From: Amphiscolops sp. MND2022
Lineage: Eukaryota
Assembly: GCA_964187785.1 (NCBI GenBank)
Contig: OZ076409.1
Coordinates: 58,034,001 to 58,098,000 of the forward strand
Direction: 5' to 3'
DNA: 64,000 nucleotides
In this document: positions 20,605 through 57,842 of the stretch, in pieces
Layout: each line of letters opens with the position of its first letter
Position numbering within the stretch: the stretch's first letter is position 1
Notes under the pieces: model-generated
Databases searched by the model: none
What the model was told of the DNA's origin: nothing
The model's input: the letters and a program-made list of their open reading frames with translations, nothing else
Program-made: the position numbers and the translations under genes

Positions 20605-21387
20605 TCAATGATAGCTCAGAAACTCCAGAGCATGTTTCGTAATTCCAACAGCCAGAGCTCCGACATATAATACGAACATGACTCGGTCTATCAACTGCGA
20701 CAGCAACTTCCAACATTTGTATTCCTTCTCGGTCTGACATGTTTCTTCCTTGCACAAAGAGGATCCATCGTTCGATTTTTCCATTTGCTTCTCTGTTGGG
20801 TTGTCATGAACGTTATGATTAGATATTCCACCCTTTTGGCGTACATCATGTCGTTCATTCCTGCAGTTAGTCCTAGCGTTCGGGTTGCGCTGTTCTTCGG
20901 CATCCGTTTCCGGTCTCTCAGCCGGGACTTCCCATCCTCTTCTAGTCTCATGGACCGATCCGGCCATCATGGCATTTTGAATTTGAGGCAACACTTGACT
21001 ATTTATAGCCTCATTGATGGCCCTTTGGATCTGTGAACTAACATTATTAAGCATATCGTCCATCTCTCTCGAGATCCTAGAATTTAATTCGCTTGACAAC
21101 CTGTTTATCTCTGCAAGTGAGTTTGCTTCAGCTGAGTTTTGGCCCAAGTCGGCGCTTGTCCTGGGTTCATTGTTCCTACAATTAGAATATAGGCTTTCGT
21201 CCTCATTCTCTTGATTGTCGCTTGCAACACTATTCCTCCTCCTAGCTGAATTACTATCTAAACTCCTTTCTCTTTCAATCCCGTTAAAGTGATTGTTTCC
21301 TAGCATTATATCTAGGTTTTCAATATCCGAAAGGATCTCTAATCCTCTAGACTTTCTAGTCTTCTTCTGCTTTCTCGTTGTAGGCAT
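20605..21387 (-). other. Chimeric ORF: LTR-borne Gag N-terminus (195 aa) fused in frame to the host channel C-terminus with M4
   Basis: First 195 aa match Gag. Junction CAT GAC A|AC CCA reads HD-NPTEKQ...IDRVMFVLYVGALAVGITKH. Confidence 0.7.
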
Positions 21388-22727: not shown

Positions 22728-23424
22728 CTGCGGGTGTAAGGAAAAGAAACGAACCTGCATTCAACCCGTTTTCGTAGGCTTCCCTTCTCAGCTTTGTTAT
22801 GAATTCTGGCTCATCTCTCGGTGTAGATCTGTCCATGTACCAATCCACTCGCTGTTTCTTGATCGCATCTACTGAGCGGCCACAGACCATACATCCGGTA
22901 TAACGTGTTTCGCTCACATTCTCGTACGGCTTCGTGTTTTGAATGTGATATGACGCCCTGAATGCAGAGTCAGCTACTACTAGCGGGGTATCCATAGACG
23001 GTCCTCTCTCGTGAGGGGGCGGTGATAGAGGTGACTCCACGACAGGAAGTAGAGTTTTGCAGAGCTCTATCCGAGATTTCCCTATCTTCCTCGGGGGAGC
23101 ATAACACATTTCTCTATCAAAATATTTGTGATCCAACTTCGGGGTCACGTCCATCTGCGTCTGCCTGGAACTTGGGCCAGCTTCTGTATCTTCTTCTTCT
23201 TCTTCGGGTAATTCTACAGTCATAATGCGGCCCCCTATTAGCATGGGGCTGGATATTACCTCTTTCTCGATCCTGGCCACCAGTTGTTCCGTATCAGTGG
23301 AATAGTCGGTTTCCCAATCCGAGGCTTCGCTCTCACTACTAGATATGTAGATGACAGATTCGTTAGATTCGTCAGAATCATAATCCATGTCGAATAATTT
23401 CCTTGCCAGGTTGTACTTGCTCAT
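22639..23424 (-). CDS. Accessory ORF (261 aa; acidic N-terminus, CxxC) ending inside the 3' LTR
   Basis: Intact ATG-initiated ORF. A homologous ORF crosses the LTR boundary of a divergent relic at 39294-39832. Confidence 0.75.
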   Translation of the reverse strand: MSKYNLARKLFDMDYDSDESNESVIYISSSESEASDWETDYSTDTEQLVARIEKEVISSPMLIGGRIMTVELPEEEEEDTEAGPSSRQTQMDVTPKLDHKYFDREMCYAPPRKIGKSRIELCKTLLPVVESPLSPPPHERGPSMDTPLVVADSAFRASYHIQNTKPYENVSETRYTGCMVCGRSVDAIKKQRVDWYMDRSTPRDEPEFITKLRREAYENGLNAGSFLFLTPAVSQAAACDGTMITTTSNNQEVIPGTLPTF

Positions 23425-24338: not shown

Positions 24339-27300
24339 ATGTCTTCAACTGAAGGTTGGTTTGTTTCTTTTTGAACTCAAATTTAACTTGATCAGGGCTA
24401 AATTCGTTCACAAAATGCTTCCTGTTTTCATCAATAAACGTGTGATAACACGTTTCGTTCAAATTTTCAAACACTTCCGGAAGTTTTCTAATGCGGTAAA
24501 ATGGATTTTTTCCAAGGAAGCTCACCGCCAAATTTCATCTCATTCTGTTTAGAAAACCAGAATAATGACGAATCACAGATTCGAAACACCACTTCTTCAA
24601 ACAATCTTGCCGAGGTTCCTCAACGCCCGCTCCCGATTACCATGCCAAGGCCTAGATCCGATCTAATTGCTCCGTCTTCTCTATCTTCATCCAACATCCT
24701 TGCTATGCCAACAGCAGCGGTAACAGGAGGAGCCCAAGATACAGCTACTCCCTCTCCTTTCAGTGTCGACAGTGATTTTGATGTCACGGCGTACGCTGAT
24801 GAGAAAGTTTTGCTTCTCGAACGGGCCCAGGAACAGGAAGAGAGACAAATTGCCAAGAGTTCTGAACTCGGGGAACAGGAGGTTGAAGAGAGTGTCCCAG
24901 AGGGTTCACTTACGGTTGGGAACGAAATCCGATCTTCTACCTTGCCCTTCCAAACAAGCACTCCAACCAAGGATTTGCCCAGTGAGTCTGCAAGGCTGAA
25001 TTTATCGCAACTAGAAGCCGGTCTCACAGTTGCTCCATCTACCCAGACGGAATTGCCAGAATTGTTGACAACTCGCGGAAATACTACCAACATGTCAGCA
25101 GCATCATTCCTCCACCATGAGACTGACGAAAGTTCGTCTATATGTGATGCCCCCAAATTGCCGACTGGAGTCGCGGACATAGTATATTTAGACGACATAA
25201 CAGGGACTGAGGAAGCTGGTGACACATCCAGTCAGGCAAGTGGACCAGCTCTATACAGTTTCCAACCAGTGGGAGGCGCAGCAGAAACTGCAGGGGAGTC
25301 ATCAGTTGACACTCCTATTCCTCATCCGGATAACTTGCGTCCGTCAACATCAACGTCTGCAGAGCAAGGTTCTGGCATCAGGGAGCTCTCTGGTCGCAGC
25401 CGGGCTATTTTAAAACAATACTTCGATCAGGATGCTACTACCATCAACTTCCCCCTCGGCCATAGAACGGTGGCTTTCACTGAGCCACAAGTGTACCATC
25501 TTTTGAGGGTCCTTACAGATGAAACCTTGAAGATGTCTTTCACTGCCATGGAACAGATGGTGATCGGGGCAGTTCGTGGAGCGCCGGTTACTTCCAGTTC
25601 TCGAACTGGTCATTTCCGAAACAGGCCAAGAGCCCAAACTCCCGGACCTGGACTTCATAGTGATTCCGAGGGCAGTTCGCATTCTGAAAATTTCCCTGAG
25701 TCAGGAACTGATACGTCTGCCGGGTCAAGTTCGGAACAAGAAGATAGAGGACTGGACTCTTCCAACAACACTGATAGCTCTGGGGAGATGGCTCTAATTT
25801 CACAGGCTTTTAAGGAGCCTTTCAGACCTGCTTCAACTTCCTGTGGGACTACTCAAGATGATCCCCCTCAAGCAGGTTTCGAATCAGCAGATCAGTCTAG
25901 TCTTGATGCTACCCTTTCCGAGTTACGAACTCAAACTTCTCCTGCTCCGCCCTTAGCTTCGAGTTCGGGTAAAGTGCCAAAACGTAAGCAACGGAAACAG
26001 ACTCGAGGTATCCCTATGAAAGAGGAGTTCTTCTCTAAAATCGGATGGACGCGCTCGTTCATTTCTGGACCAGCAGACCCGCTCCATAATCCTTATATGG
26101 TATGGTGCCATATATGCAAAAAGAATCTTTCTGTGAAGACGAAGGGCACTTTGGAAATTCTGCGGCACCACAGGACGGAGAAGCACCTCCGAAAAGATCA
26201 AAGATGGCGTTACGAGCACCTCAAGAGTGTTCACCCCGTGTCCGGAAAGGTGCAACATCGAGTGAGAGGCCGCAATGGGAAGATTCTCTCAGAGATTGAG
26301 TTGGCTAAGGAGATGCGCCACTTTATGCACGTTGAGTTGGTGGACATCGGAGAACGTTTCCCTTTCTATGACGATTTCATAAAAGGAACAACCACCACAC
26401 TCGTCACCCCTGAATCAAGAGCTAAGACACAGATCCAACTTATTGGGAACTTCATACAGCAGCACGGGGATATTGGAATGCTCCGCAAATTGTGGTCCCA
26501 AATAGGCTCTTTGACTAACTACCAGTCCAGCTACTGTGACTTCGATTGGGGTGAAGAAAGAATTTCGGTAAGTTCTCTATTGGGTTTGTACACTGCTTGT
26601 GGTAGGCCAAAACCTTCCAAACATTTCGTAATTCTCCTTTTCCTTTTCAGGCCATCTTCCAGCACATCTTCAATTGTGCAATGAACGATTTAGCAAACCA
26701 GATTGCTACCACACAGCACTTTGCCATCGAATTTGAGGATCAGGGTGTGAACAGACTCATGTCTGTCAAATTCTGGAAAGACAACACCCTCTGCCGAGTC
26801 TACGTGTGTCGAAGTGGGCTTCCTTCCTCTGACCTTACTGGAGAGTTGGGGTCCCTCTCTCGACTCCTCTCAGTAGTATCCACTAAAGCCGATATAGTCG
26901 CCTGTTCCGGATGTCCTGTCGAGCTGATTCAGACTATCGACAACAATGTTTTCTTCCCCCGGGCTGTCCAGAGTTGCTTTCGCTTCGAGCATCTGCAGCT
27001 CCAGAAGATGATGCACAAGCCCACTTTCAGTGTGTTTGGCAGAATAGACTTCTTCTCTGTTCTGAAGTGCCTCGTAGTTTCACTTGGAGCAGCTTCCAGT
27101 GAGGATTGGGCCCTGCAATCCCCTGAACTGGCACGAGTTAGTATATTAAGTTCAAACATGAAGCGTAAAGGGTTAGGGGGTAGGTTCGGACAAAAGACAA
27201 TTCGGGTTCGTTTAGGCTATCGATACCTGCAAACTGGACTTGCCGAGTTTACCCAACCTCTGTCGGGAACTTGTAAAACATTGGAAGGCGATCCGGCAGT

Positions 27301-28745
27301 ACCTGACGTCCCATACTCCACACCAGGGAATGCAGGGGGTCCACAATCAAGTGCAGAGCTTCGAGTGGTCTCTCATCTGCGACTCCTTCTTCATCGTCAA
27401 GTTGGAGTTCTTTCAACGCATAATCAGTGATTGTGAGTATACCGCTACATATCCATATTGGTACTATAAGACATTATCAGAATGATCCTTGATCCTTGAT
27501 TCCTCGGGCCACTAGCGCAGTAGGCATATCGGTATGGGTTTATGTAGACGTTTTGTTCTTTTCATGGTCTTGTCCTTTGTATTTCCAGATGTCGCCAGTT
27601 TCGTTGCCAATCTGTTGGGCCGACGAGATGCAACATTTTTCCTCTGTGGAGAAGTCTGCCGATTCATCTCCAAGTTATGTGCCAGATGTTACTTGCCGGA
27701 AACCATCCCTCTCGAGAATTCGTGGTTCCTGCTCCTCAATTTCAACGTGAGCGACGGGAAGTTCATCAGCGAGGAGGAGTTCCTTGTCCGACACCGGCTG
27801 ACAACTCGGATAGCTACTGCCAGCAAACAGTGTGCCGATGTTGTCCATTTGAACAAGAAATCGGAGAAAGCCGCCATTGAGAAGACAGCTGCAGAGACAA
27901 CCAGCAGTTTCGTCAAAGAAGGACTGCAGTTTATTCAGTACTTGGTCAAGCAGGTCCTCAACCAAGCCGGTCTGAGCTCCGAGGTGATCAAGGGGTTGGC
28001 CGCCTTTGATCCTTTCGTCCTCTTCAAGAGGCCGAGTGAGGTCGGACTTCGTCATTTCGAGGTATTGTACTCGACCTTCCAGCTTCGCTCCTGGGTCTCC
28101 GGTGAGAATGAGAACATCTGTCGAGATGAGTATTTGGCTTTGTTAGATCACCTGCGAGTCAATTATCCTCCAGATTTCGATTTCAATGAAAATTCCCCCG
28201 ACCTGATAGACTTTCTGATGCAACTCGAGTTTTTTCAAACTCATGAGCACATTTTCCATCTTTTCAAGCTGTGCTGCTTGTGTTTGACAGAACGAAGTCT
28301 CCAATATCCCCCAGTATCTTTCGGGAGTGTTAACACTTCTGGACACCGAGGCCGTTTTGCTGACCTTATAGAGCCCTGTCAGAGTTACCTTTCTTGCGTG
28401 CCTGACTCCATTCTACATTGTTGTTCTGACGCTAATTTAGAAAAGCTTTCAGCCCTCAGTTCTTCCTTCGAGCGTTCCGCTTTCTCCCCCGACTATGATC
28501 CATGGACCTTTGTGGATGAGTTCGGGAGGTCCAAAATTTACAAGAGCCTTCTTGCCTCCTATAAGGTCGTCACTGCTGTTTCTCCCCCTCGGGCTGTTCA
28601 TCTGGAGACAGGAATTGCCTCCTCCGTGCCGGACGATTCTGCCATAAAGGTGCCCTCCAAGAAGCAAAGGAAGCGAGCAGGTAGCAGCAGTTCTACAATT
28701 TCGTCCACTTCCAAGAAGGCTGTTCAAGGGTCCTCTAAAGACTAA
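24339..28745 (+). CDS. Antisense spliced cargo gene of the retrotransposon: BED-like zinc finger plus degenerate hAT-like transposase fold (~1296 aa)
   Basis: Exons 24339-24354, 24553-26567, 26651-27136, 27216-27432 and 27589-28745 total 3891 nt. All four introns are GT-AG with matching phases (1,0,0,1). Zinc finger WCHIC...RHHRTEKH. An alternative unspliced start exists at 24501. Confidence 0.8.
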
Positions 28746-28977: not shown

Positions 28978-31900
28978 TTAGTATCTGAAGTCTTCTGAGT
29001 AGTTTGGATTTGGATTAGGCCTGAGATTATATTTCCCTCCTCTAGGGCTCAGACTTTCATTTCTAGCATCTTTTTCAGATATTTCGGGCACGATAATATC
29101 ATCCCCTCTTTTCGGAGAATTTTGTGCATCGTTGTCATTCGATGAATTTCTTTCTGGAGAATTTTCATTCCCGTTTGGTCCATTTGCCATATCCGGCGAA
29201 GATTTTTCTTGGGTTTTTGGGGAAACGGCCGGATTCGGCCAATCAAATTCTTCGTTTCTAATAGCTCCAGTAGCTTCATTTCTTTTAGTGACGTCATCAT
29301 TTAAGCGGACATTCCGGCTGTGTGCCGTATTGTCATTATTCGTTTCTCGCGTGATTATATAATCCGCGTCACTCTCGTTTGCGTCATTGTTGATTTGTTC
29401 CGTACTCGGCTGTTCGCCGTTCGGTGAGCTGGCCGGAATAGGCTCGCTGCCTCGTGTGTCTAGCTGTTCGCCAAAGTTTGTTTCCCACGTTATTACATAC
29501 AAGTCGTCTTGCGGAATGATTATTTCGTCATCCGGCTGTAGACGCTGTTCTCGGAAATTGTCCTCAAGTGGCTGATTTGGAACAAACTTTTTGAGACGAA
29601 TTCGATGCAATATCTGCGTTTTATTTGTATTAAGCCTGCGGACAATGTAATTCTCGTTAGGTAAGGTCTTCTGGACTATAAATGGTCCAACCCAACGATA
29701 ATCTTTGAATGGAATTTTTGATCCTTGATGATCCGCTTTCGGCTGTAATACAAAACAGTAATCGCCCTCTTTGAGTGGGGCGGCTTTTGCTTTTCGGTCA
29801 TAATACTCCTTATATTTGATATATGACTGCATGATGTTCTGCTTAGTTTTGTCAATAAGGAGTTTTGTCCGGTTTTGGATTTCTTCTGCGAATTCAGTAG
29901 TCGGATGGATTTGCTCGTTTGGATTTGTTCCAAGCTTGTGATCCAAGATGTTGTATGGGATTCTTCCATGGAACACTCTTGTCGGTTCACATCCGATACT
30001 GGCATGGTAACTAGTATTGTGATTCAGAACTGCTAATGGCAAATATTTGTGCCATTGTCGGCGATATTCTCCACATGCCATTTTCAAGTTTGTTTTCAAT
30101 GAGGCATGTGTGCGCTCCAATTTCCCGATAGTTTGCGGGTGCTTTGTCGTTGCACATTTTAGGGTAATTCCTAAAATTTGGGTAATTTCTGCAATAATCG
30201 TGGAAGTGAAGGCAGTTCCTTTGTCTGTAATGAGCGTTGTCGGTAAGTAGGAATGTTTGGTCATAATGTCAATGAGTGCTTTGGCTACATTGATCGCTGA
30301 TGCGTCCGTGAGAGGGTAAGCGAATAAATATCTAGAGAAAACATCAATTGCCGTTAGGACATTTTCATACCCTCCGCTTGGGGGAAGATTCGGCAATAGG
30401 TCAATTTGCATGGCGTCTTCAGGTCCAAGGTCCCATTCGGGCAAATTTAGTAGTTCAGGCGTGATCGTTGCATTAGGGACTCTTTTGTCTCTGGCGCATT
30501 GCTCACACCCTTCTACCCACTTTTTGACATGTTTTGCCATGTTGGGATAATAATACCTTTGTCTGATTTCCTGCAACATTTTTGAAATCCCGGGATGTTT
30601 ATGCGCTGTCCCGTGAAGGGAGTGGAGCAGTTCCCGAAGTAGGTGTTGCGGGAGCAAAATTTGATGGTATTTAACATTCCCTGTTTCATCAAAATATTGC
30701 CGTGTTAGGATTTCGTCCTTTAGTACAATTCGTTCCAGATTATTTGCATAGTGTCTATATCGAGCGTCCTGTTGCAGTATGTTTTCTGAGTAGTCTTCGT
30801 GAAGGAGTTTTGCCTTCAATTGTTGTAATACTGCATCCTTGGATTGCTCGATAATTATCTGGTTTGTTTTCCTCAATCGGTCTTGTATTTCAGGTTGTTG
30901 TTTGGTTAAGTTGGTGGAAAGAGTTTGTATTGTAACTGTAGGGTCTTCGATTACAGGATTGTTCCTGATTGCTTCTTTCCTCGCCCAATATTGTTCTTCG
31001 GTCTCGTCGTCGTCATTGGTGTAGAAGATTTGTTCTTCCTGTGAGACTCCTGCTGATTGGACGTTTATTTCTATTGGTAGCGTTTGTACATCTTCTCGGA
31101 TTTTCATTACTAATTTGTCCTTTGGGTCTGCTTCCAGTCGGGACAAGTAATCCGCTGCCGTATTCTGTGCTCCTGGGATGTGTGCAATGACAAAATTGAA
31201 CTGAATTACATAGTCGCATGCGTTCCACAGAGCTGGGGGTACGATTTTCGTCTGAAAGAATCTCGTTACGGCTTTGTTGTCGGTTAGAATTATGACCGGT
31301 TTCGGTGCTCCCCAAAAAATATGCCCAAATTCTTTGAATGCAAAATAAATCGCAAGAAATTCTTTTGCATAAATTGACATTTTTATCTGGGCTGGGGTGA
31401 AGGTTTTTGAACCATAAGCGACCGGTGCATATGATTTGCGGATTGACGTGAATTTCTGACTCGGATCATCTTCAATGAGTACTGCGTATCCTGCAGCTCC
31501 AAAACTTGCATCTGTCATGAGTGCAATCTGCTTGTTGGGAATGGGTTGTTGTAAGGCTAAGTCGCAACATTTGTCCAGAGCTCGGTTGATTTCCTCAAAT
31601 TGCTGTACCAATTCTTTTGATACTAGGACTTTTTCGTCACTTTTCAGCATCTTGTAGAATGGGGCAAGGCGTTCGGACAGTCTTGGAACGTAGTTTCGGT
31701 AGTAGTTCAGGAAACCCAAATATCTTTGCAATGCCTTTTTCGACTTTGGAAATTTGGTTTTTTCTAGAAAATTCTGAACGTTCTGTCGTTGAGGTTTGAC
31801 GCCTTGTGGAGTAATCGTTCGTCCAAGGAAATCAATTTCACGGGCACCAAAATGACATTTGTGCATCGTCAATTTAAGGCCTGCTTCCTGAATGCATTTG

Positions 31901-34180
31901 AAAGTTGCTCTTAGGTTAGCAATGAGATGGTCGGCGTCGTTGGCGGCGATGCCGATATCGTCCACATACTGGGCGCACTGATCCGCTTTGATGACTTTGT
32001 CGAGGTATTCCCTCATGAAACTCGAGAATGCGGATAGTGACCGGCTAAGGCCTTGTGCCAAGCGTCTGTAGGCGAATGTGCGACTGGCAAAATTGAAAGC
32101 CAACATTTCGATTGAGCGTTGGTCGGCCATTGGTAGGCAGTGGTATGCCTGCGAACAGTCTAATTTGCAGAACAGTTTTTTGCCTGCCAGGTGTTGGGCA
32201 GCATCAACTAGTGTGCTGACAGGATGATTATTGTTTATATAATCATCAGAAATCAGGTTGTTGATTTTTCTCAGGTCGACTAAAAGTCGCAGTTTCCCAT
32301 TTGGTTTCTTTTGGGCGAATATTGGGCTTGCATACTTTGAGAACGGTAGAGTGGTGATGATGCCATATTTGTGTAACATGGCTAATTCGACGAGGATGTC
32401 CTCCTTTAGATTGATAGGAGCTGGGAGACTTTGACTATAGGCTGGGGAATCGTCCTTAGGCGTCAGTTTCACCTTAAATTCCTCATTCATGCCTATATCG
32501 AATCGGTGTCTTGCGAAGATATCGTGGAATTCCACTAACAGTTCCTCTATTTTCTCCTTCTCTTCAGGAGTAAGGGTGGAATCTTTCCAATCGAAGTTTT
32601 CCAAGAATTTTGCACGTGATTCTTCATCTTTGGTGGGGTCGAGTGTCTCCAGTTCCTGTAAGGCCTGTAATTCTCGGAGGATTCGTTTCTGTATCGGTGT
32701 GTGTTCCTCAGGGTTTCCAGGATTTTCTGGAGTTGGGAACCAATAGTTTTCAGAATCTTGTAGATTTTTGTTGGTCTTGATGAGACTGCTGACGTAATGG
32801 GCCGCCTGCTCTTGGTCGTTTTGCAAAAGATGCCAGGTTGATGCCGGGTCTACCGGTTTAACATGTTTCATTTGTTCTGGCGTCATGACTGAGAAATTGG
32901 CAATATGGAGTCCCTTTTTGAGTTTGTAAGGGTGGTCTGTGAAATTGTTCACTGGTATCAATATATTGCCCTCATTCAGAGTGACCAAAGCTGGGCAAAA
33001 TGTGATGTCGCCTTCTTCGTGTAGGAGGTCGCTCGGTTGCAAGATCCCGGTGACAGCATTCTCAGGGTACAACAGGGAATTGGTCCTAATTAGGACTTTA
33101 TCATTTGGCGGAATGGTTTGAGGTAGGGTTGAGAATTGGTTCTAACACGTTTGAGTATTTATGATCAGCTGTTTTGAGCTGCATTGAGAAGAACGGGAAA
33201 TTCAGTATGCCTTGTCTCATGTCCAGAACTGTGTGGTTTCGTTGAAGGAACATTAGGCCGATAATCGGACCTGTCAGGTGTTCCATGACTATAAAAATCT
33301 CATGAAACTCAATGTCGCCAACTTCAAATTTAAGTTCTATTGTGCTTTTGGGCGTTTCCAGTTGCCCATTAGCGACCATGATTTGGAAATTCGGAGGCGG
33401 ACCTTCCCGGATAACAGATTGTGGAGATAAGAGTCGAATTTTCCGGAGGTCCATTTCTGGAATTGCACTGGACAATGCTCCAGTGTCAATGAGTCCATCT
33501 ATGGTCAGCTCCCCAAAGTCCATGGGGAAGTACAACATGCGCTTCTTGCATTTGAGATTGATGTTGGTCGACAAGGGTATACAGTCTGGTTCACCGTCTC
33601 TGGTGATTAGGACGTTCTGGAATTGCTTCTCGTCTAATAGTGATTGTGGTGTAGGTTCGGAGTTGTCCTCATGGGCCTCGGTCCCCAATGGGTTCGGGAA
33701 CACTGGGTGGTTAGTACCATCATTCATCTGCCAGTTTTCAACTAGTGCTCTGGTCTTTTTATTGTGGGTAATTGGAGGGTTCTCATGGACTGTTCTATTG
33801 TAGTGCTCGATGTCATCTAGGACATATTGGAATTGTAGTAGTTCCTGGTTGTAGATCTCTGTGTCCCAATAGGGATCTCTGCCGTAATCTGGATCTATGT
33901 AGGTAGGATTGTAATTGTCAACCAGGGGAATGGGCCTGAATCGGCTATTGAAAGCAGATGTATAGTCAGGGTCCCATACAGGAATTGGTTTTTGGAACAA
34001 ATGAGTGTTATTGTATGTAATGATGGTAGCTTTTTCCATTTGTTGCTGCCAGACAACAGAGGGATAGCCCATCAATTGTTGATTGTATTGGTGGAAAGTT
34101 TGCGTTGGAGGGTCCGATCTGATGTATTGTCGGACAGATATCAGTTCGTTGTATTGGAGTCGTGGCGAAGTTAGTTTTTT
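28978..34180 (-). CDS. pol: Pol polyprotein (protease, dUTPase-like spacer, RT, RNase H, integrase) with one frameshift near 33120
   Basis: LIDTGA, KLDCSQAY, YVDD, TDASF, TDNKA, HHCC (H...HKH...CEQC), QIDL/TDKG/LER triad, WVGPF. ORFs 33101-34075 and 28978-33072 are in different frames. Confidence 0.93.
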
Positions 34181-35880
34181 GACTCATCGTTGGAAGATGA
34201 GGCCTGTGAGTTGGAAGATGTTGACTTGTGTTGTGGTTTCTGCGCTTTTGAATTGGGTTTTCCGTCATTAGCGTCGTCTGGTCTGGTGCGTTTGGGTTTG
34301 AGATGCGCACCAGCGCCTTGCCAGCATCTTTCTTCCGGGTGGTTCTTTTTACCACAAGTGCCACACTCCGGATACGTCTTTTTCTGAGTCTGTTTGCCTT
34401 GTTGGGCATCTTTTTCCTTTTTCTTCTTCAACTTTTCGCAGTCCTTGACCATATGGCCCTTTTCCTTGCAATAGTTGCAGGTTATATCTGACATTTGCCC
34501 AGTAGTTAGAGGAGTCTTGGATTTTGTCGAGGAGGTCATTGTGGCCATTGGTAGGTCGTCTGATTCCTCTAGTGCATTGAGTTCTAATTCTCTCTCCAAA
34601 TGAGCATCTATTTCGTCATAAGAGCCATTTTCGAGTCTAGCCATGTTGACAGACCGCTTCAGTTTTGGTGGCAGCTTTGCGTAGAGCAAGCTGTCAATCA
34701 TTTTCTGGGCGTGATCCCCAAATGCTTTTTCTGCCCCTTGATTTAGTTCTTCAAGGAAATCTGGTAATTTCATCGTATTGGGATCAAAGACCAGGCGGTG
34801 CCATTTATGCTTGGCAGTCGCCTGTGATTCGGGCTTGACGTATTTTCGTCTGAAGATGATTAATACGTCTTCTAAAGTTTGTCTGTTGCTGGAGCTGATG
34901 TTTCTGAAGGTTTGAAGAGCATTCTTTCTCAATAAAGAGTGGAAGTGATTGATCTTCATTTGCTCAGTCATCTCTGGCTGCATCTTGATCATCGTATGGA
35001 ACAGGTCCTCAAACAGCTCGAATTTTTCACTCTTGCCATCAAAAGTCATTGTGTTTGAGTTGACCGGGCGTATAGTGAGTTGTTGGGCTGTCGGCCTATT
35101 CTGCATCGTTGTCAAGACGTCTGCCAATCGAGTAATAGGGTCGGTTTGGGCAGCCGGAGCATTTCTCTCTTGCGCTGGGATCGTCGTGTCAAGGTTGATG
35201 TCCTCATAGGACCTGTCGAGATGGTTTCTGGATGAGACTCGTCCCGTGAGAAACTCGGGAACTTGAGGTGGAGATTCGTTGTCTCCTGTCACCATGTCAT
35301 GAACGTTATGATTAGATATTCCACCCTTTTGGCGTACATCATGTCGTTCATTCCTGCAGTTAGTCCTAGCGTTCGGGTTGCGCTGTTCTTCGGCATCCGT
35401 TTCCGGTCTCTCAGCCGGGACTTCCCATCCTCTTCTAGTCTCATGGACCGATCCGGCCATCATGGCATTTTGAATTTGAGGCAACACTTGACTATTTATA
35501 GCCTCATTGATGGCCCTTTGGATCTGTGAACTAACATTATTAAGCATATCGTCCATCTCTCTCGAGATCCTAGAATTTAATTCGCTTGACAACCTGTTTA
35601 TCTCTGCAAGTGAGTTTGCTTCAGCTGAGTTTTGGCCCAAGTCGGCGCTTGTCCTGGGTTCATTGTTCCTACAATTAGAATATAGGCTTTCGTCCTCATT
35701 CTCTTGATTGTCGCTTGCAACACTATTCCTCCTCCTAGCTGAATTACTATCTAAACTCCTTTCTCTTTCAATCCCGTTAAAGTGATTGTTTCCTAGCATT
35801 ATATCTAGGTTTTCAATATCCGAAAGGATCTCTAATCCTCTAGACTTTCTAGTCTTCTTCTGCTTTCTCGTTGTAGGCAT
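34171..35880 (-). CDS. gag: Gag polyprotein (569 aa)
   Basis: TFDGKSEKFELFEDLF capsid-like region and two CCHC knuckles (CNYCKEKGHMVKDC, CGTCGKKNHPEERC). Confidence 0.92.
   Translation of the reverse strand: MPTTRKQKKTRKSRGLEILSDIENLDIMLGNNHFNGIERERSLDSNSARRRNSVASDNQENEDESLYSNCRNNEPRTSADLGQNSAEANSLAEINRLSSELNSRISREMDDMLNNVSSQIQRAINEAINSQVLPQIQNAMMAGSVHETRRGWEVPAERPETDAEEQRNPNARTNCRNERHDVRQKGGISNHNVHDMVTGDNESPPQVPEFLTGRVSSRNHLDRSYEDINLDTTIPAQERNAPAAQTDPITRLADVLTTMQNRPTAQQLTIRPVNSNTMTFDGKSEKFELFEDLFHTMIKMQPEMTEQMKINHFHSLLRKNALQTFRNISSSNRQTLEDVLIIFRRKYVKPESQATAKHKWHRLVFDPNTMKLPDFLEELNQGAEKAFGDHAQKMIDSLLYAKLPPKLKRSVNMARLENGSYDEIDAHLERELELNALEESDDLPMATMTSSTKSKTPLTTGQMSDITCNYCKEKGHMVKDCEKLKKKKEKDAQQGKQTQKKTYPECGTCGKKNHPEERCWQGAGAHLKPKRTRPDDANDGKPNSKAQKPQHKSTSSNSQASSSNDESKN
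34174..34180 (-). promoter_or_regulatory. -1 ribosomal frameshift slippery site A AAA AAC
   Basis: Heptamer sits immediately before the gag stop. The -1 frame is open (KLTSPRLQY...QQLMGY) into the protease ORF. Confidence 0.8.
35281..35294 (-). promoter_or_regulatory. Putative primer binding site
   Basis: TGGTGACAGGAGAC directly follows the 5' LTR terminal CA. The priming tRNA was not identified. Confidence 0.7.
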
Positions 35881-37220
35881 TGAGACTAAACCGGGTTGAA
35901 GAATTAAATTAATCAGGACCGGAAAACAGTAATTGTTAACAGATTGTTATCAAGTTGATTGTGAGGAGCTTTTCGAAAATTGTGTCTACTCAAAGGAAGT
36001 AGCTCCTATATATACTCCCTTGGGTGGGAAAAGCATGGTAGTAACTTTAAAAAATGTCATAACTACATTCCTAAAGCACCTGATCAGATCATATACGTTC
36101 AAACATCAAAGTGCCGCTGAATTGTAGTAGCAAGGTCACGCGGCCGTTTAAATTCCAGCTTCGATGGGATTGAGAGGCATTCAAATAGCACGCGTTACTT
36201 CAAACAACATCTACTATAATATTTGCACTGCTGGTATTTGGGGAATGTCAGCTATCCCGTGCCGGCACGTGCCCCAGTAGTAAGCTAAACAAACTTACAT
36301 CAAATAACGTTACATGCATAATACATCTACAAATTGCATGTGTTAATTGACAAATGAGACCGGACTGGTCTTTCGGGCAAGTATTTGAAGCACCAACACA
36401 CAACTGGTGTTAATCATATCAACCGATCTGGAGGACTACATAACTGTTTGTAACACACTCATTACTGTACATGTCATTTAGAATGCACAAAACAATCATA
36501 TTGACCATCTGAGTAATAAATTGAATGGGTGGCCTAAATCGGCCATTATCCGGATAGGTATAGCATCAGGGGAGGGAAATTAGGCAAATGGCCTTATTCG
36601 GCTAAGCATCAGGGGAAATGAAACAAAACACTAATTATCCAACGTGATCATTTAACAAACACAGAAACGTAATTAAGCTACTCATTAATACAGTATAGCA
36701 GCGTCCACATCATTATCTTTTCGTTAGCAACTTATGGCCGAAACCGGCCGTTTGACTCAAGTTCCGTTTAACAAAGGCGGAATTCAGTTATGTGGCCTTA
36801 ACCGGCCATTAATTAAATACAGCACAAGTATTGTTCAAATGGATGAATGTGATTGGTTAGCACGACTGCAGTAAGTTATATCGCCGAGAAGGGACGTTTT
36901 CGCACTTGAACACGTTTCCTTCTCGCGATTAACTTGCTCTCTTATTGTTTGCTATAGCATCAATACAACTTCGCAATTTAATTCAGCTATTACAACAACG
37001 AACTGATTTGGCTAATCCCAAATCGTAATATTAACAGACTAATTTGAACATCCAATATAAGTGATCAAATAAAATAAATACAAACAAAATACATGATGTA
37101 AACGGTTTCTAAAGTTTTAGCAGTTTTATTCTTAAAAAGTTGGCAGTGTTCCGGGTATGACTTCTTGGTTGTTGCTTGTTGTCGTAATCATAGTGCCGTC
37201 ACAGGCGGCAGCCTGCGACA
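35295..37220 (-). repeat. 5' LTR (1926 bp)
   Basis: Direct repeat of 20802-22727; only three substitutions seen by eye. Followed on the minus strand by TGG. Confidence 0.97.
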
Positions 37221-38078
37221 TGGGTCATTCAAATCTTTTTCGTTGTCTGTATTGTTTCCGGGAACTTCCGTCACCTCAACTTTCGAAAGATTGTTCAGTC
37301 TTGGGAGGCCGAAAATAGGCATCAGAAACGAGTTTAGAATGGTCCTAGTAATCGGATGGGGTATGACTCCACAAGGGGTGAGGTAAACCCTAGTTGAGAC
37401 AACCGCAACTACAACAGAGATGGAAATCAGAACGATTGAGAATAGAATGAACTCGCCCACGATGGGGAAATTTTCTGACGAAGGTGGAAGAATGTCTGCA
37501 ATTACTATCAATTCGACTGTCTGAGAGAGAAGAACTGTTATTCCCAGGGAGACTCTCTCGCCACTTTCGACTGGAAGCAGAAAGCAAAGAATGGAAAGCA
37601 GAGTCATAGTCGTCGTAGGTAGTATGATCACATTCACATAAAACGTAGGGTGTCGTCGGAAACGGAAACGGTACAAAATTTTATCGTACCTCAAAGACCC
37701 AGCTGAAGTTCGAGCTCCGTGAAAGTTTCGATAACTGGTGGAGATTGAAACGGGCTGCAGGAGTTGCCACTGACCGGCAGGCTGGAAGTACTCCAGATTC
37801 AATCGATCGGAAAGGCTATTTATGCTGTCTATTGTTAGTCGGTAGCTACCATTAGTTGACCCCCATTGCCCAGCTCCGAATAAACACTCCTGTGCAAAAA
37901 GTAACAGATCTCAAGTAAATGAAGGAAACTCAATGTATTTGTAAAGAAGGGTGTCATTTGACAGCTAAAAAAACTAAAACTTGCTCCAAAGACATAAGTA
38001 ATGGATAATGATGAAAGACTAGTTAAAATTGAGCATAAACTCCTGTTGAATTATTGAGCTTTGCGATTGTAAAACGCT

Positions 38079-39337
38079 TGTGATAATATTCCTCATCTGA
38101 GCCCTCGTTTGAAACTAACGTTGCGTGGAAGACTAGTTCGTTACAAAGGCTAAGCAGGATGTCTTAAATCCTTCATTTCAGAGGCCTTAAGAGGATAATC
38201 CTCGTTTTTTTGAATATTAAATTTCAATGCTTGATGCTTGAACTTCTGTAGACTTATCTGTTTTGGATCCCGATGCTTGTGTCTTTTGGGCTTCATTTGT
38301 CTCAGATTTAGGATGAGTAACTGTGGAAACACTTTTGTTGGTTCTGACCTCTTTTAGAATGGCTTCCAACTTGTTATCCATTTCTTATCTCAGTTTCATG
38401 ATTCTATCGTTGTTCTTTTGCTCAATTACCTGTGTCCAATATTTGGATTTAATTGCTGATTTGACTGGGTTCATTCAGTTAATTTTCTAAGAGACCATTA
38501 CCTAACCTTTCTTGAACATTAACTTTAGTATCAGTTAAAGTCGCATTACCTGTATTAGGTGTCTCAACTTGGGTATTATTTGTTTATCTGTCAGGAGAGG
38601 GTGTTTATAGTCTCCTAGATCGTCTATTTCCTCTATTTCCCATTTTTCACAAACGAAAGCAAAGTTTTGCAGCAAAAAAACAGTCGAATGTTCTGCAAGT
38701 ATTCAGTGAAACAAGGCTCTTTTGAAGAATGAAATTGTTTAGAAGAGTTCACAAATTGGAAAGAGAAAACTTTTTCATGAATCAACGGCATTTGGCGCGG
38801 GTTGACTCTCGAATCAATCGATGATTTGAAGTTTATACAGCTAAAAACACATGACATAGAGTATTCGTTATTGATCGAAGCGTAGGATGCCGTATAGTGA
38901 AAAAAAAAACGCATAGTGACGGGTATACGTCGGGTCGCGAACCGCATAGTACCGCATAGTGGTACTGTGCAAAAATATGATGACAAAAGCTCGTTAAGTC
39001 TCGAACTGCACAGTGACGTATAATCACTAGTACATGTGACCATTAAGTAGCATCACAATCGACAAATTACGTTATCTCTGATTCATATGACTCATTAGGA
39101 TAATTGATGGATGTGCGGTTTTACTTCTCAATGCAATTCAGTGTTCACTTTTTAACGCGAGAGAAACTTATTTAGAACAAAGTTTATCCAAAGCAATACT
39201 CTTGCATGATATCATTAAAACGAACAACGGCGGATAAAAGTGTCGCATTATCTTTCTCATAGTTTAATTTGACTGCAGGTTTTGTTCGCCTTCTTAGTGT
39301 TGCTCCCTGGTTGCAATACAGCTGTTAGGTTGTGACA
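38079..39337 (-). repeat. Diverged 3' LTR of a related Gypsy family containing a gag stub
   Basis: Minus strand TGTCACAA...TATCACA. Colinear similarity to 50763-52106. Contains a decayed MGNRGNRRSRRL gag-like start (~38643). Confidence 0.65.
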
Positions 39338-39832
39338 GTCCTGCAACCTTGAAGGTAAACGCGGATGCCTCAAAACCATCGATGAACGCACGGGACCTGA
39401 CTCCCCTGTCGCTCACTGTTTTGTCGTCGTAGGCAGTTGCAAGTAGAAACTCACTCAAAATCTCCGAGGCATTTTGGTCGTATGTTTTGCTGCACCTTTC
39501 GCAAAATCCCTCAACGTGTTGCGTAAACATTGGGTTGAGTCTGTATAGATGCCACTTATTGACGGGCATGAGAAGAAGATTAGTACTGTGCGTGTTTTGG
39601 GTCACAAGTAGTTGCAACTGCTTTCACTCAATTCCGGTTTAGCACCGGCCTCCGCTTTAGACTCCTCAATGACGATGCGCTCCTCCGAGGTCAGACCAAG
39701 AGGCGACTCTAGGTACACTGGAGGTACTGGCATCCGATCCAGTCGCGCCCTCCGATCCTCCTCTGCTGATAACGGACAACACGACTTATCTAATAGCGAC
39801 CTCTGTGTCTTTATTCGGAACTTCTGCTCCAA
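39294..39832 (-). pseudogene. Decayed homolog of the 261-aa accessory ORF
   Basis: GFCERCSKT...RSRAFIDGFEASAFTFKVAGLSQPNSC aligns by eye with TGCMVCGRS...RREAYENGLNAGSFLFLTPAVSQAAAC. Confidence 0.65.
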
Positions 39833-42914: not shown

Positions 42915-44005
42915 TGTTATGCCGAATGGCATGATGAAGTTTGACAACGACGCGTCTCAGTTGTCAAGGACTTTGATTCCAGTTCATTAAAAACTAACAT
43001 TAAATAATTTATATTACCTAAAAGAACGACCGGTCTATCCAGTCGTCATTTTACCTAATACTTTGCATTCAATTCAGTATATATTACATGATAAACAGAG
43101 CATCGATTAGTACTTGTGAGAATCATTTTCCAATTATTACCTAAAAACAAGTAGCAGAAACCATTGACAAATCGTGGGTCAATTAGTACATTTTGCGAAA
43201 CCCAAAGCAGCAACCAAAAGATTCAGTCAACATAAACAATTGGTGCATCGATTTCTTCTTATGTTAACGATTTGTAGCTATAATCACCACCATAACCTAC
43301 AGTCGTAATTGAGTCGGTGCGAAAAGTGAAAAGACTAGTGAATTAAACTAATGCGATAACAGGTGCGAAAGTGCTGTGATGAGGATTAGCAACAACCGAA
43401 GTAACCAGTCGTCTAGTGCACCATGAAGTGATAATTGCTGACTTAACCAGTAACACCAAATAAGTACACGCACTCAATTAAACGTTACTAACATGTGACT
43501 AGTATTACGAAGGTGCTATTGCGAAATAGAAATCAACCAGTTGATCTTGTGCTACCGTGATATTCAGACGTGCTTTTTACTCTTACCAAAAATCCATTCT
43601 TTGCCCTCAACTTAGTAAAACGTACATTCCTACCTTTAAAATCTAAAATCAATTCAACATAAAAAAACGAACACTTTTCTTCCAACAATGGTAAATACTA
43701 GATCCCAGATTAGCAGAGAGACTCAAAACAAACAACCAGTAGTAGATGGATTTGTTGATGATGAAGACATCGTTAGTTTAGCTGATCATTACTCAGGGAG
43801 TTATTCCAATCAGAATGATGAAGAGACAATGAGATTTCAAGAGAGAGGTCTTGAAAGGCTCACAATAGAACAGAGGTTCTTGGAAATGAACGAGCAAATC
43901 AGTGAATTAACAAGTATGGTTCGACACTTCCTGAGAAAGTTACGTACAGTAGAGAAGAGAAGGACCAGAACGTCCACGCCTACGGGACGTCAATGCTTTC
44001 TGACA
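42915..44005 (+). repeat. Probable LTR relic containing a gag-like start (MVNTRSQ..., 43688)
   Basis: The ORF resembles a Gypsy gag N-terminus and is cut at TGACA (44001-44005). The left boundary is uncertain and no matching TSD was found. Confidence 0.4.
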
Positions 44006-46212
44006 GTGGGGGATTAGAATAGTAACGTAGAGTTGCGCACAACCATGAATCTTATTATATGACATCATATTGCCCATTGAATAGTGTATATGGCCTAAAA
44101 TATACATAAAAGATAACAGTAAGGTTTTATTTTCATCATGCTAGCATGACCAGCGTTGACGTAGACTTGGTTGCGATGTGACTATTTGTGAGGTTAGTTT
44201 TCATCTGTATAACAATATCACACCTGCAACTATGGGACAATTGTTATCAAAATCTTGAACAACAGCTGCAGAAAGGGCAGTCGTGTAGGAACTTTTTCCT
44301 AGAATAGAGTGTTTTGAGTAATTGCTACGAAGAGACATTTCTCATCTACTTTCAATCCATTATTCAAAAAAACAAAGAATACTAGCAGGATTAAGAATTG
44401 TTTCGCCTTTGTTTGCCCATTGTAATGAAGAGTACCCTAGCTGAGACTGCTAGAACTTTTTAAATCTGCAGGCCTGCATGCAGTATAATTTTTTTTATAA
44501 AACCTAAGGATTTCAGTGAGGTTCCTGTAGTAAATTTTGCAAAGTTACACACCTTCTCTATTGTTGCACTTAAATTTGAAAATATTTCTCCTTTCTTTAT
44601 GGACAAACTCACGATTTCTCCACAATTCATCTGATTTAATCGCCGGTTGCCAAATAGGACGCTGAAGATGACGCTAGTTTGATGTTTAAATTGCGAATGA
44701 TGGTAACTTGCAATGAAATGGCAGCGAAATTGTTGATGTCTCAGCTGCATTTAAAACTAGAACTGATGCATAATGAAAAACTCGCGAAAACGTTGATGAT
44801 TCGTCCAAGCAGGTTGATAAAAGATGATGACAACTGGGAAACACTAACGAAATAAAGTTCCTGTAAGAGATTTAGAAAAACATTAAAAAAGTTGCTGGCA
44901 ACTTTGAAGGACATAGAAAAAATTCAAGCATGTCCAACAAGGGTACTAGCGTGATAATTTCAGACGGTTCTCTGTTTCTGAGTAACGGGAAGAAACACAC
45001 TACCACCTGATATTCGTACTATCAACTTGGATCTCAGCAGCAAAAATTGAAAACTGATTGCAATTGACAAGCAAGGCACAAAAAATTGAATTCTGGTACA
45101 TTTTTGAATATCAAGCACTTTGTGCAGAAACGTTGAGATTTGTGCATAGTTCCTCATGCTACGAATAGAATCTACGTTTTTCTTTAGTTTTCCTTTTTGT
45201 TAGTTCTGTAGAACGAGCCTTTGTTTAAGTAAAACTTTAAACTTAATATGTTTCGTAGTTTTTGAACTATTTGTTTTTCTTTTATATTTCACTTTTGGCA
45301 ACATTTGCAAAAGCGCCAACTATGAAACATGGGAAAGAATTCATCAGTATAGATCAAGAGAAATAACTGAAAATCATGAAAGCTCACCTGAGAGTCGAAT
45401 GGGAACAGCCGGACATTGAAGTTGCAACTCAGTTTAATGTTCACGATGGAGCTTTCAGCCGCAACTAATCCATTGGGATAGATTTGCTGCTTATCAAAAA
45501 TGTGGTAGACAACATCCGCTGTGTCGTAAAACACCACATCTGGGGTCCACACAGATCCGGCCGGTAGCATAACATTGGTGACACCATTCTTAGCAGGATC
45601 CCACGCCAAGTCAAGCAAATAGTAGGTTAGAAAAACCCACAGTCTCAGACTCACGATAGCCTGCCTCTCATCTACCTCGAGGATCTGATACAAATCCACG
45701 AAAAGAAAAACCGTGTTGTTGAGCATGTTACTATGACGAACATATTTTGTGGTTTTGCTCAGCAGATCAGTTATAAAGGAGTCTTCTAGCGACGAATTTT
45801 GGAACCCGTTGCACGGCCTGTCGATACAAGTTTGGAACACTTTTGTTCGTATTCGAATTTGAAGTCTTAAGGCTTGTTTTTCGAACGCAGTATCAAACAA
45901 CCTGTATGAAAAAACCGGTTAACTTTACTGAATTTTCACAAACTCTAGAGTTATAAGTCAATTGTTGATTGTCTTTACCTAGATGAAATTTTGGGTTTTC
46001 TGTGAAATTTGCAAGACAGCGTTTTTGTCTGACATCACTGCTCTAGCATTTTCTAGCACGGGTGAATGCTCTATATGATCATTGAAAAAAGTAAAATCTC
46101 CGTCGATTTTGCTTCGCTTTGTTTGATTTTAACTTGCTTATCTGATTTTTTAGGACTCGATCGAGGTCACGTTCTCGTCGTGAGTTCTGTCACGTGTGTT
46201 ATATAAATCCAC

Positions 46213-47022: not shown

Positions 47023-50000
47023 GGTTATTGTTATTAGCCCACTGAAAGAACCTTTTTGGTAAAAGTGTTCCAAAATTGAAACTTATTCACCAAGGTGACA
47101 ATGCAATGACGACAAAAAGAAAAGTCCAAGAAACCATTGAGTTCAATTTGTACATTTTTGCTTCTCAATGGAAACCTTGTAATGGCAGGTGAAACATCAG
47201 TAGGTAGTGGTTTCTTCTTAGCATAAAGCTAATAGATTTAGGAAATTAAACTTTGTTGATATTTTTGACGAGAACTGTGACTGAACAAAAGCAAACAAAA
47301 CAGTAAATTATTTTCAAACAACATCTTGCTGCGAATATTTGTCGCTGATGCAAGTTTAACAGTATGAAATAATGGATGCTCCAAAACTTCCAGTGAAAGA
47401 TTTATTGGCTTGGTGAAAAGATGTGTAAATTTTTAAACCTTCATTATGCGTTGAGACGTCTGAAGTTAAGTTTCGATTGAAATGTTTCAAAAAGAAATAT
47501 ACTTTCATTTGTTGCTAATGAAGCACGAGACTTAAAGTAAAGAGGTTTTCTCAGATGTTTATTGGTGCCATGGGAAGTAATTTTTTGTCTTAAGAATATC
47601 ATTAAATTTCATTGAAAATTTGAATTCATTATTTGTTGCATCTATCTGATCGAAGCACCTGAGACAAATTTACATGTCTGTTTGATTACGAAATTTGTAC
47701 AAAAAAAATGCTTGAAACGGTCAATATTTGGAACTTTTTGAATTTTGGGGAGGCATTTTCAGATTTTGTGAACTAACTATTTCAAATTTCTAATCTGAAA
47801 AGCACTCTGTGTTCATTTCAACGCCTGAAGACGCCTGCCATGCCAACATGATAGAAATATGGCTCTATTATTATATATAATGTACGTTTTTTGTCGTATT
47901 TACTTATCTATGGGCGATATTAAGTCATATAATAAAATTCATGGTTGTGCGCAAATCTACGTTAATATTCTACTCCCCTACCTTGAGTTTGAGCTATGTA
48001 TTATTTTTTATGAGCCTCCTGAATCACTACTGTGCATATATGTTTGAAATACTGGTCAAAACCCAAGCAAAAACAAATCACAAAACAGAGGAAAACGTAA
48101 CACTGAATTCAAGTTCACCGATGATAAAAGCATGAAAGGTGTGAGACTCCGGCTAGTTGAGTCTCACAACGAACTGTCGTGTCTTAAATATCACCTCATT
48201 ACGTAACCATCGCACAGAGCGATTTGTTTAGACAGAGCTATGATATACGACATGGAAGTGATGAATAATCCCCGTCAATTATATTTCACTGATGTGCTGA
48301 AATACCAACGATGTAAATGAGATGCGAATTTCCCATCGTTTCTGCATCTCTACAGCAGTACAAGCCAATTTGAAATGTGACGATGAAGAAACGATGGAAC
48401 TTCAGTACTCTTTCCCTCGAAGCTACGTTCTACAAAGAATCCATCAATTTCTAATCACCGTTGCTTCCATTCTCAAATAATGAAACTCATTCATCGTTTT
48501 CGAATCTACTAGCATAGAAACATGAAGACACAACAGAAACAGGTGCAAAACGGTGCAAAATGATGATTTTCATTTCCCCCTCCTAAATAGCTGTCTAGCT
48601 GCAGCAAAATCATCGCTTTTACATCTAACATTCTGATTCGCTGCTAGTTAAATTCCCAAACACTTCGATTTCAACGGTTTCAATTCCTATAATTTTTACT
48701 GCATGGTCATGATTCAATGATGATAATTATTCAAAGTAAAATAGTCTCATTATATTGTCATGTAAATTATTTCAAATTTTGCTTGGCGCGCATTTATGAT
48801 TGGTAGTTTCTCAACACCATCGACAGCAACTGGTCACGTGACCGAGTATCAATTAGCACGTTAGTCCAACCCACGAGAGCACTCGGATGGTAAGAAATGA
48901 GGCTTACCACCTACCGCGCCGGTCTACCAACCAACTATCATTAATCCAATTTGTGTACTGACTACAATACGCTTTTACGACATATTGATTTCTGCATTTG
49001 TAATTCATCTTTACCTTCAACTTATCAATACAATTCTTATCCAACTAAACTTTCTTTCCTACATTACATGAGCCATCTCTCTCCTAGACGACTTAGAAAC
49101 GGAAAACTATTTAATGAAGAAAATTCTAATCATACTGACGCCTTTTCCCACATAAATCTAAACGGTAACATGGGAGACGCGAATAGTAACACGAACGGTT
49201 GATATAGAGACCCACCATGAAAACGAAGAACGTTTTAATAGACTTCAAACCCAAATGTCTACCTTAAAGCAATGATGGAGAAATTATTAGAACATAATGG
49301 CGAGAAAGTTAGGCAAGTTGACGCCGTCTCAATGACATCTTCGTTTGTCGTACAGGCGTCCAACAAACGTTCTAAATCTGAACAAAAAGACGCGACATAA
49401 TGGCCAAATTTGGAAAACTTTCTTTTGTTGAGGGTTATTTTTTGAGCATTTTTGTCCGTAAACTCCAAATTCTTGTTCGTAAAAAAGTGCCCGATGATTA
49501 CTTCGTCTTTTAAATTTTTAATTAAATCTCTCAAAATTTCGGAATAGGGTACGAAAGTAGACGAAGTGTTTGAAAACGGAAATTGAATTTTATTGTTTTT
49601 TGGGCATTTTGAGGTTTTTTTAAAAAAAATAAAACGTCAAATTACGTAAGAGCGTACAGAATGGCTAGCTGGTCCTTTCCAGATTTTTATGGATGATGTG
49701 TATTTTATCGAAACTTCCGGAAACTGTACCAAAATTGTCTAATGGAGTGTAAATGTAGTCTAAAAGAGTGGAATTCTCTTCAAAAAGAATTTCGATTAGT
49801 TTTTAGTTCCCCTTAGATGCTCTTCGATTTTCTAACCCCACAAAGTAGGCAAAAGCTTTACAAAAATTCATAAAAACTTAATCAGGAAAAACTTTTGAAA
49901 TGTAATTTGTGTTTTTCAGGTTTGTAAATGTATTTTTATGTAATTTGGGGGTCTGTTTGGGGTCAACAAAAAATCCAAAAAACTGTACAAGGACATATTT

Positions 50001-57832: not shown

Positions 57833-57842
57833 TTTGGTCCGC

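Follow-up and report, generated by a model that had tools for sequence, protein, structure and literature searches.

We analysed a window of 64,000 nucleotides (nt) from Amphiscolops sp. MND2022 (contig OZ076409.1 of assembly GCA_964187785.1, positions 58,034,001 to 58,098,000); the window means this whole stretch, and positions are counted from its first letter. It contains a long terminal repeat (LTR) retrotransposon of 16,419 bp (16.4 kb) on the minus strand, from 37220 to 20802, whose gag open reading frame (ORF) begins inside the 5' LTR and continues through the LTR end and the primer-binding site (PBS). The features of the element that bear on this arrangement were as follows.

35295 to 37220, minus strand: 5' LTR, 1926 bp, with TG...CA ends
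20802 to 22727, minus strand: 3' LTR, 1926 bp, with 3 differences from the 5' LTR and none in the coding part
37221 to 37225, minus strand: upstream copy of the target-site duplication (TSD), ACCCA
20797 to 20801, minus strand: downstream copy of the TSD, ACCCA
36007 to 36014, minus strand: TATA-like box, TATATATA, 134 nt upstream of the gag ATG, a putative promoter element
35965 to 36006, minus strand: predicted 42-nt hairpin directly after the TATA-like box (minimum free energy only, without a shuffle control)
34171 to 35880, minus strand: gag ORF, 569 residues, with the LTR-coded N-terminal region, a capsid-like region and two Cys/His knuckles
35295 to 35880, minus strand: portion of Gag encoded by the LTR, residues 1-195 and the A of Met196
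35791 to 35880, minus strand: Gag 1-30, a basic N-terminal tail with a short helix, on average 93% identical among relatives
35443 to 35631, minus strand: Gag 84-146, long amphipathic helix, modelled as a parallel homotrimeric coiled coil
35283 to 35294, minus strand: putative PBS adjoining the LTR, a TGG-initial 12-mer read as Met-Val-Thr-Gly
33101 to 34183, minus strand: protease frame; it and the gag stop overlap at an A AAA AAC run
28978 to 33141, minus strand: pol frame with reverse transcriptase (RT), RNase H and integrase, entered from the protease frame by a second frame change
22639 to 23424, minus strand: accessory ORF, 261 residues, with a CxxC motif and its last 89 nt within the 3' LTR

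The two LTRs were 99.84% identical, with mismatches at LTR positions 1059, 1064 and 1314, all upstream of the gag ATG. These three differences, together with the ACCCA duplication, mean that the copy is young and that its ends are certain. The gag ATG at 35880 is LTR position 1341, and 586 nt of the frame (195 codons plus 1 nt) lie inside the LTR. At the junction, CAT GAC A/TG GTG ACA GGA (HD/MVTG, with the slash at the LTR end), the last LTR base is the A of Met196 and the PBS encodes M-V-T-G. All 195 codons were identical in the 3' LTR. The open frame of 217 codons was reached in 0 of 2000 Markov simulations of the LTR, which gave a maximum of 181. The first-pass annotation had placed the gag ATG about 585 bp inside the 5' LTR, with a frame through the LTR end and PBS, a TATA-like sequence about 130 nt before it (36014-36007), a 195-codon duplicate in the 3' LTR and coding frames overlapping both LTR termini, and each of these agreed with our measurements.

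The primer of the element is probably a tRNA-Leu-type tRNA, judged from its motif. In P0189, a short relative of the LTR-coded part, the sequence after the LTR end continues as MVTGVGFEPTHP, a tail that we take to resemble the complement of the tRNA-Leu 3' arm. The tRNA-3'-arm-like stretch in P0189 exceeds the usual PBS length before unrelated sequence follows, possibly as an over-extended primer copy. There were no tRNA genes within the 64-kb window.

To place the LTR-coded frame among relatives, proteins from ENA contigs were collected and counted as proteins or sequence clusters, not as host species. A search with Gag residues 1-200 gave 249 full-size proteins (312-996 residues) among 575 candidates, and the best 120 of the 249 were examined. 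These were 60-100% identical over residues 1-200. An MPT-like start was present in 118 of the 120 listed, and a (H/Y)D-M(V/L) junction likewise in 118 of 120, where it followed exactly 195 residues in 95 proteins and 189 residues in 14.

The short relatives were more numerous (1207 among 1237 candidates), and 120 of the 1207 were examined. Among these, 98 matched to HD and then left the family, 10 continued with MVT, and 12 ended earlier or had an altered junction. Three of the 98 were set aside as degenerate internal copies. In all 95 that remained the residue after HD was N, T, S, I, R, K or M, that is, one with an A-initial codon (background 0.41; 46/91 at the second residue). Such a pattern is expected when unrelated DNA follows an LTR that ends in GAC A, and so the LTR end is fixed at this codon in 95 separate clusters even without their DNA.

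Distant relatives were collected by a profile search (150 listed of 2349 representatives of 50%-identity clusters), and 41 had at least 60 residues before the capsid. The MVTG-like motif was preceded by at least 50 residues in 18 of these and by fewer in 3; another 7 started at MVTG and 13 had no such motif. The residue before the Met was H, D, N or Y in 21 of 21 cases with an internal motif, which fits ...ACA/TGG. Seven distant representatives, with capsid identities of 47-83%, had a complete-looking basic N-terminus 115-224 residues before the junction. The proposal that LTR-coded Gag is a lineage-wide trait was borne out to this extent (118/120 full-size, 95/120 short and 18/41 distant representatives), and the LTR-internal frame was conserved among copies.

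In four distant Gags (P0302, P0425, P0315 and P0328) tandem, degenerate, in-frame copies of the H/D-M-x-T-G junction were observed. To judge from their sequences, these repeated units suggest that the junction may have moved by in-frame duplication of the LTR-end/PBS unit. Distances in the LTR-coded part and in the internal part of Gag were moderately correlated, with a Spearman coefficient of 0.53 (97/120 proteins), and those of the two halves of the LTR part with one of 0.67. Nineteen protein pairs were at most 2% apart internally yet at least 25% apart in the LTR part. Discordant pairs included P0089/P0114 (LTR-coded 1%, internal 13%) and P0001/P0058 (30% and 2%). The discordance hints at LTR exchange between subfamilies, although rate differences alone could produce it. 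Scans for related loci in viral and bacterial genome contigs returned none, and a metagenome scan returned 8 loci with zinc-knuckle-level or short matches only, which were not used.

The window also contains relic LTRs and candidate Gag stubs.

38079 to 39337, minus strand: decayed LTR of a second family, with a Gag stub from 38643 ending in CAC A at the LTR end
50763 to 52106, minus strand: decayed solo LTR of the second family group, with TSD TCACT and a Gag stub from about 51325 ending in CAC A at the LTR end
43688 to 44005, plus strand: candidate stub ending in GAC A, unconfirmed, with no homolog and no convincing TSD
49068 to 49365, plus strand: candidate stub ending in AAC A, unconfirmed, with no homolog and only mismatched TSD candidates

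Gag-like stubs had been proposed earlier at about 38643, 43688 and about 49068. The first is the N-terminal Gag stub of another family (tblastn to P0321, E 1e-21), but the other two lacked both a homolog and a convincing TSD; no longer homolog of the 43688 stub was found among 89 candidates. The stub at about 51325, in its solo LTR, was additional. P0321, one of the seven distant representatives with a complete-looking N-terminus, matched both 38643 and about 51325, and both of these confirmed relics carry stops and frameshifts. An inverted repeat pair (44006-44156 and 47831-47981, 76%) begins exactly at the end of the 43688 candidate stub.

A homolog of the accessory ORF (39297-39623, minus strand) precedes the 38079-39337 relic and enters its LTR in the same register. 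The Smith-Waterman alignment covered 65 residues without a gap, and 2 of 2000 shuffles scored as high; BLASTP of the accessory ORF against the frame before the 38643 relic gave no alignment. The idea of a conserved splice acceptor at the boundary of the 3' LTR was given up, as the relic has no AG there.

The LTR-coded part of Gag was then compared at the protein level. Blocks 1-30 and 90-137 were 93% and 84% identical across 119 relatives, and the changes within them were conservative, with mean BLOSUM scores of +0.64 and +0.70 respectively against -0.36 to -0.49 in a neutral simulation. The linkers of the LTR part were 57% and 43% identical and neutral-looking in composition, and were still open. 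Neutral change to 60-69% identity would leave 3-4% of frames without a stop, a figure weakened by the fact that the searches return open frames only. The ratio of nonsynonymous to synonymous change (dN/dS) in the LTR-internal codons, a comparison that the first-pass annotation had proposed, was obtained from a relic LTR pair of the second family. Mismatches at codon positions 1, 2 and 3 numbered 55, 33 and 73 (p 0.0005) over 178 codons in plain DNA alignment blocks. The dN/dS was 0.33 (bootstrap 0.19-0.52), or 0.36 in a filtered version, while a neutral control had a median of 0.72 (0.47-1.12) and 0 of about 1000 replicates as low.

Three copies of Gag 84-146 were modelled as an in-register coiled coil with a score of 0.80 (best control 0.01), contact agreement of at least 96% between runs and a predicted local distance difference test (pLDDT) value of 88. 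In calibration, which used two copies, not three, the score mark was reached by 21/30 solved homo-pairs and 0/23 monomers from microbes, and by 7/16 in animals. The model supports self-association of Gag 84-146, with the number of chains left aside. The comparisons show that many subfamilies have kept the LTR-coded frame and that it is constrained at the protein level, and they are good evidence, drawn from sequence, that the LTR-coded region is a working part of Gag.

The whole is, in our judgement, very probably best explained by an ordinary Ty3/Gypsy Gag (basic tail, coiled coil, capsid and zinc knuckles) with the tRNA primer site inside its coding frame. Transcription would begin a short way past the TATA-like box, some 100 nt upstream of the gag ATG. 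Ribosomes would use the first AUG, or leak past its weak context to the in-frame Met28, and translation would read through U5 (the unique 5' region of the LTR) and the PBS. In the standard scheme (PMC7175516) the first cDNA runs from the PBS as far as the 5' end of the RNA and spans the repeated region R and U5. Under that scheme everything 5' of the PBS should become minus-strand strong-stop DNA and thus R-U5. With the PBS moved into gag, the 195 codons are therefore duplicated into both LTRs automatically, with no extra step. The stubs of 3' and solo LTRs would be by-products, and their tails unselected flank.

Several observations weigh against this explanation. Downstream of the TATA-like box there is no AATAAA; the only similar words are ATTAAA at 1640 and TATAAA at 1721, and the one perfect signal is at LTR position 91. 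As this sole AATAAA lies upstream of the presumed RNA start, the division of the LTR into U3 (the unique 3' region), R and U5 is provisional. The context of Met1 is weak (T at -3, C at +4), whereas Met196 has G at both -3 and +4. Seven of the 41 distant representatives begin at MVTG and 13 lack such a motif, and these may be broken copies or families starting at the PBS. Protein searches return only open frames, so that openness is partly ascertained, and the dN/dS comes from the second family alone and one LTR pair. The AlphaFold model of Gag was confident only at about residues 91-140 (the helix), with a mean pLDDT of 39, and was too poor for a fold search.

If the stubs of 3' and solo LTRs were functional, a capsid-less coiled-coil fragment would co-assemble with full Gag and limit transposition as copy number rises. 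The short, stub-range clusters do outnumber the full-size ones (1207 and 249), the whole modelled oligomer helix is kept in the stubs, and restriction by a Gag fragment is described for Ty1 (PMC13709905). However, the frames of 3' LTRs stay open without selection because they are recopied in each cycle, both relic LTRs of the window contain stops and frameshifts, and transcripts with so early a stop may be degraded. We regard a role of this kind as unlikely. The same low expectation applies to a wider picture, in which many 3' and solo LTRs would be transcribed, the fragment would poison particle assembly in proportion to LTR number, and the cassette would occasionally graft an oligomerising, basic-tailed domain onto host C-termini.

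The frame could also be translated from an element with a short U3, with the RNA start and poly(A) site near LTR positions 100-215; cis- or trans-splicing would then take out a 1.2-kb leader ahead of the gag ATG. This would suit the AATAAA at position 91, directly after the accessory ORF stop, an initiator-like TCAGT at 215, and the lack of a canonical poly(A) signal after position 1215. Such a leader would, however, have to cope with 31 upstream ATGs in LTR 1-1340, whereas none lies between the TATA-like box and the gag ATG. In two of the four relics, the confirmed ones, a TATA-like word lies some 190 nt ahead of the stub, and the AATAAA at position 91 would simply mark where a subgenomic accessory mRNA ends. 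We consider a spliced leader rather improbable.

The element sits in sense orientation within a transmembrane exon of a host receptor gene, which marks the host as an animal, and the host frame is phase-continuous across the insertion site.

37221 to 37700, minus strand: interrupted host exon, Cys-loop receptor transmembrane region (Neur_chan_memb)
45289 to 45726, minus strand: ligand-binding exon of the same receptor gene (Neur_chan_LBD)
20605 to 21387, minus strand: chimeric ORF of 260 codons, in which the 195 Gag codons from the 3' LTR continue in frame into the last host exon segment

The upstream frame of this nicotinic-type receptor (37188-37700) stops 10 codons into the 5' LTR, and its product would lack the last hydrophobic segment (host part 20605-20796). 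The tail of the chimeric ORF contains one hydrophobic stretch (Kyte-Doolittle 1.83), presumably M4 of the receptor, and has no Pfam match.

The first-pass annotation held that every 3' or solo LTR is a promoter, ATG and open-frame cassette able to fuse to flanking host sequence. As DNA the cassette of an ATG and an open frame into the flank is present, with 95 examples in sequence and the 3' LTR in frame with a host exon, but there was no sign of its use by the host or that fusions are made. The tails of the 95 insertions had a mean of 21 and a median of 15 residues, where random flank gave 19 and 13 (p=0.12), and not one of the 16 long-tailed stubs scanned reached a Pfam cut-off. That LTRs are a productive source of Gag-host fusion proteins is therefore highly unlikely in our view: the ORF 21387-20605 does exist and continues the frame of the exon, and mouse MT/ERVL LTRs donate a promoter and AUG to host genes (PMC5538554), but an in-frame join after a sense exon insertion is a 1-in-3 event, the tails resemble random flank, and the insertion is young and breaks the receptor gene. 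Least credible of all is that Gag proper starts at the 35295 ATG, with the LTR frame untranslated or vestigial and kept for cis reasons: Met196 hardly varies and its Kozak context is the better one, 7/41 distant representatives start at MVTG, and the LTR-coded part diverges faster (68% against 96% identity in the capsid region), but the terminal CA of the LTR and the TGG of the PBS spell ATG in any canonical element, so that Met196 is forced and being conserved does not mark it as a start, the stretch from Met1 to Met196 contains 17 AUGs, and the conservative blocks, third-position excess, dN/dS and coiled-coil model all indicate protein.

By its domain order, TG...CA LTRs, TSD of 4-6 bp, capsid and knuckle, the element is of Ty3/Gypsy type as far as its sequence goes, and it is not assigned to a named RT clade. 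The Pfam order on the pol side was gag-asp_proteas (just under the cut-off), RVT_1, RT_RNaseH/RT_RNaseH_2, Integrase_H2C2 and rve, with an RNase H of Ty3 type. For Gag, zf-CCHC and DUF1759 were found below the cut-off, protein atlas neighbours carried Retrotrans_gag/Ty3_capsid/zf-CCHC (0.92-0.94), and relatives matched Retrotrans_gag, Ty3_capsid and PNMA weakly. A PDB search with Gag matched only nucleocapsid knuckles. Membership in BEL/Pao was rejected, as the Pao peptidase A17 and the DUF5641 tail were absent among 7 Pfam families on pol, and membership in Ty1/copia was rejected on the order of integrase and RT.

From the sequence of the A AAA AAC run, the protease would be reached from gag by a -1 frameshift. 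The change from the protease to the pol frame (33101-33141) may be programmed or may be a lesion of this copy. Two-step frameshifting (34171-34183 and 33101-33141) would be unusual in a Ty3/Gypsy element.

No polypurine tract adjoins the 3' LTR (22728-22767, minus strand), where the last 20 nt hold 5 purines and the best purine run is 50 nt off; this stretch is coding (accessory ORF) and pyrimidine-rich in the intact copy. There was none beside the 38079-39337 relic LTR either (39338-39360, minus strand). The absent tract is a missing cis feature of the usual kind, not one that separates superfamilies. The 5.5 kb between pol and the 3' LTR holds the accessory ORF and the following antisense ORFs.

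24501 to 28745, plus strand: three antisense ORFs of 727, 249 and 403 residues within the element

The antisense ORFs had no Pfam match, and their similarity to three regions near relics was not above that of shuffles. The first has a Cys/His motif that resembles a BED finger, and the three may be cargo or a nested element. The accessory ORF likewise had no Pfam match, and a protein atlas search with it gave no usable match.

Two other elements were observed in the window. A Polinton/Maverick-like element (1509-15917) has terminal inverted repeats, an integrase (rve), an A32-type ATPase, a double-jelly-roll capsid and a polymerase region in pieces. A BEL/Pao-like element (56907-63502, plus strand) has repeats of about 0.93 kb (97%), a DUF1759 Gag and a DUF5641 tail (61784), with no RT seen; it includes a 24-bp tandem array at 57952-58239.

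These results mean that in an entire, highly successful lineage of animal retrotransposons one third of Gag can precede the end of U5 and the PBS, and that both LTRs can contain a folded domain. Annotation that divides an element into LTRs and internal region overlooks where Gag really starts, more than a thousand stub 'genes' (1207 clusters) come out of gene callers, and dating that takes LTRs to be neutral is biased for 30% of the repeat. If true, the functional stub would offer a possible route to copy-number control by an N-terminal Gag fragment, and the cassette a possible domain donation by read-through instead of splicing. An LTR-coded Gag region of about 200 codons in an animal element was not found in searches of open-access literature listings, although subscription papers, Repbase entries or supplements may hold one, and the available portions of PMC8396678, PMC9911081 and PMC3601003 contained nothing on an LTR-coded gag layout.

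Gag of Ty3/Gypsy elements normally starts after the PBS. The present element resembles these (Metaviridae-type) elements in its order of protease, RT, Ty3-type RNase H and integrase, its capsid-like Gag with knuckles, its TG...CA LTRs and its putative PBS. It differs from them in having no polypurine tract at the 3' LTR and 5.5 kb with antisense and accessory ORFs after pol, and it departs from the canonical LTR layout, in which gag starts downstream of the PBS and U5 is non-coding. In retroviruses gag also starts after the PBS, and HIV nef, MMTV (mouse mammary tumour virus) sag and foamy virus bel2 overlap the U3 of the 3' LTR. The accessory ORF runs into the 3' LTR in the same manner, but those genes overlap an LTR at the U3 end only.

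Mouse MT, MT2 and ORR1 LTRs (ERVL-MaLR) can give a promoter, first exon and AUG to downstream host sequence (PMC5538554). There the join is made through a splice donor, the N-termini are short and expression was shown, whereas here the join would be direct read-through of a 195-residue domain.

The closest likeness in layout was to two yeast elements. In Tca5 of Candida albicans (Ty5-like, Ty1/copia) the ORF start is 'unusually deep', at 382 of a 685-bp LTR, or about 101 codons in, according to PMC4139406; Tca5 is of low copy number with few solo LTRs, and that paper leaves the use of the start codon open. The coding part here is twice as long, and the element is of Ty3/Gypsy type and occurs in many families with evidence of selection. 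In Ty1 of S. cerevisiae (Ty1/copia) GAG starts in the 5' LTR after a 53-nt 5' untranslated region, the PBS at RNA nt 95-104 is coding, and PBS changes were made silent in GAG (PMC5454406). Both Ty1 and the present element thus have a gag start in the 5' LTR and a coding PBS, but Ty1 has about 14 codons (computed from the cited numbers) in a 334-bp LTR, while here 195 codons and a folded domain lie in a 1926-bp LTR of an element from another superfamily, whose opposite LTR end also overlaps an ORF. Compared with Ty1 p22, the putative stub brake would use a fragment from the other end of Gag. The present element works like Ty1 and Tca5 in its coding U5-PBS, yet it is no member of Ty1/copia, and it is an extreme case, the largest we found, of a layout known from these yeast elements.

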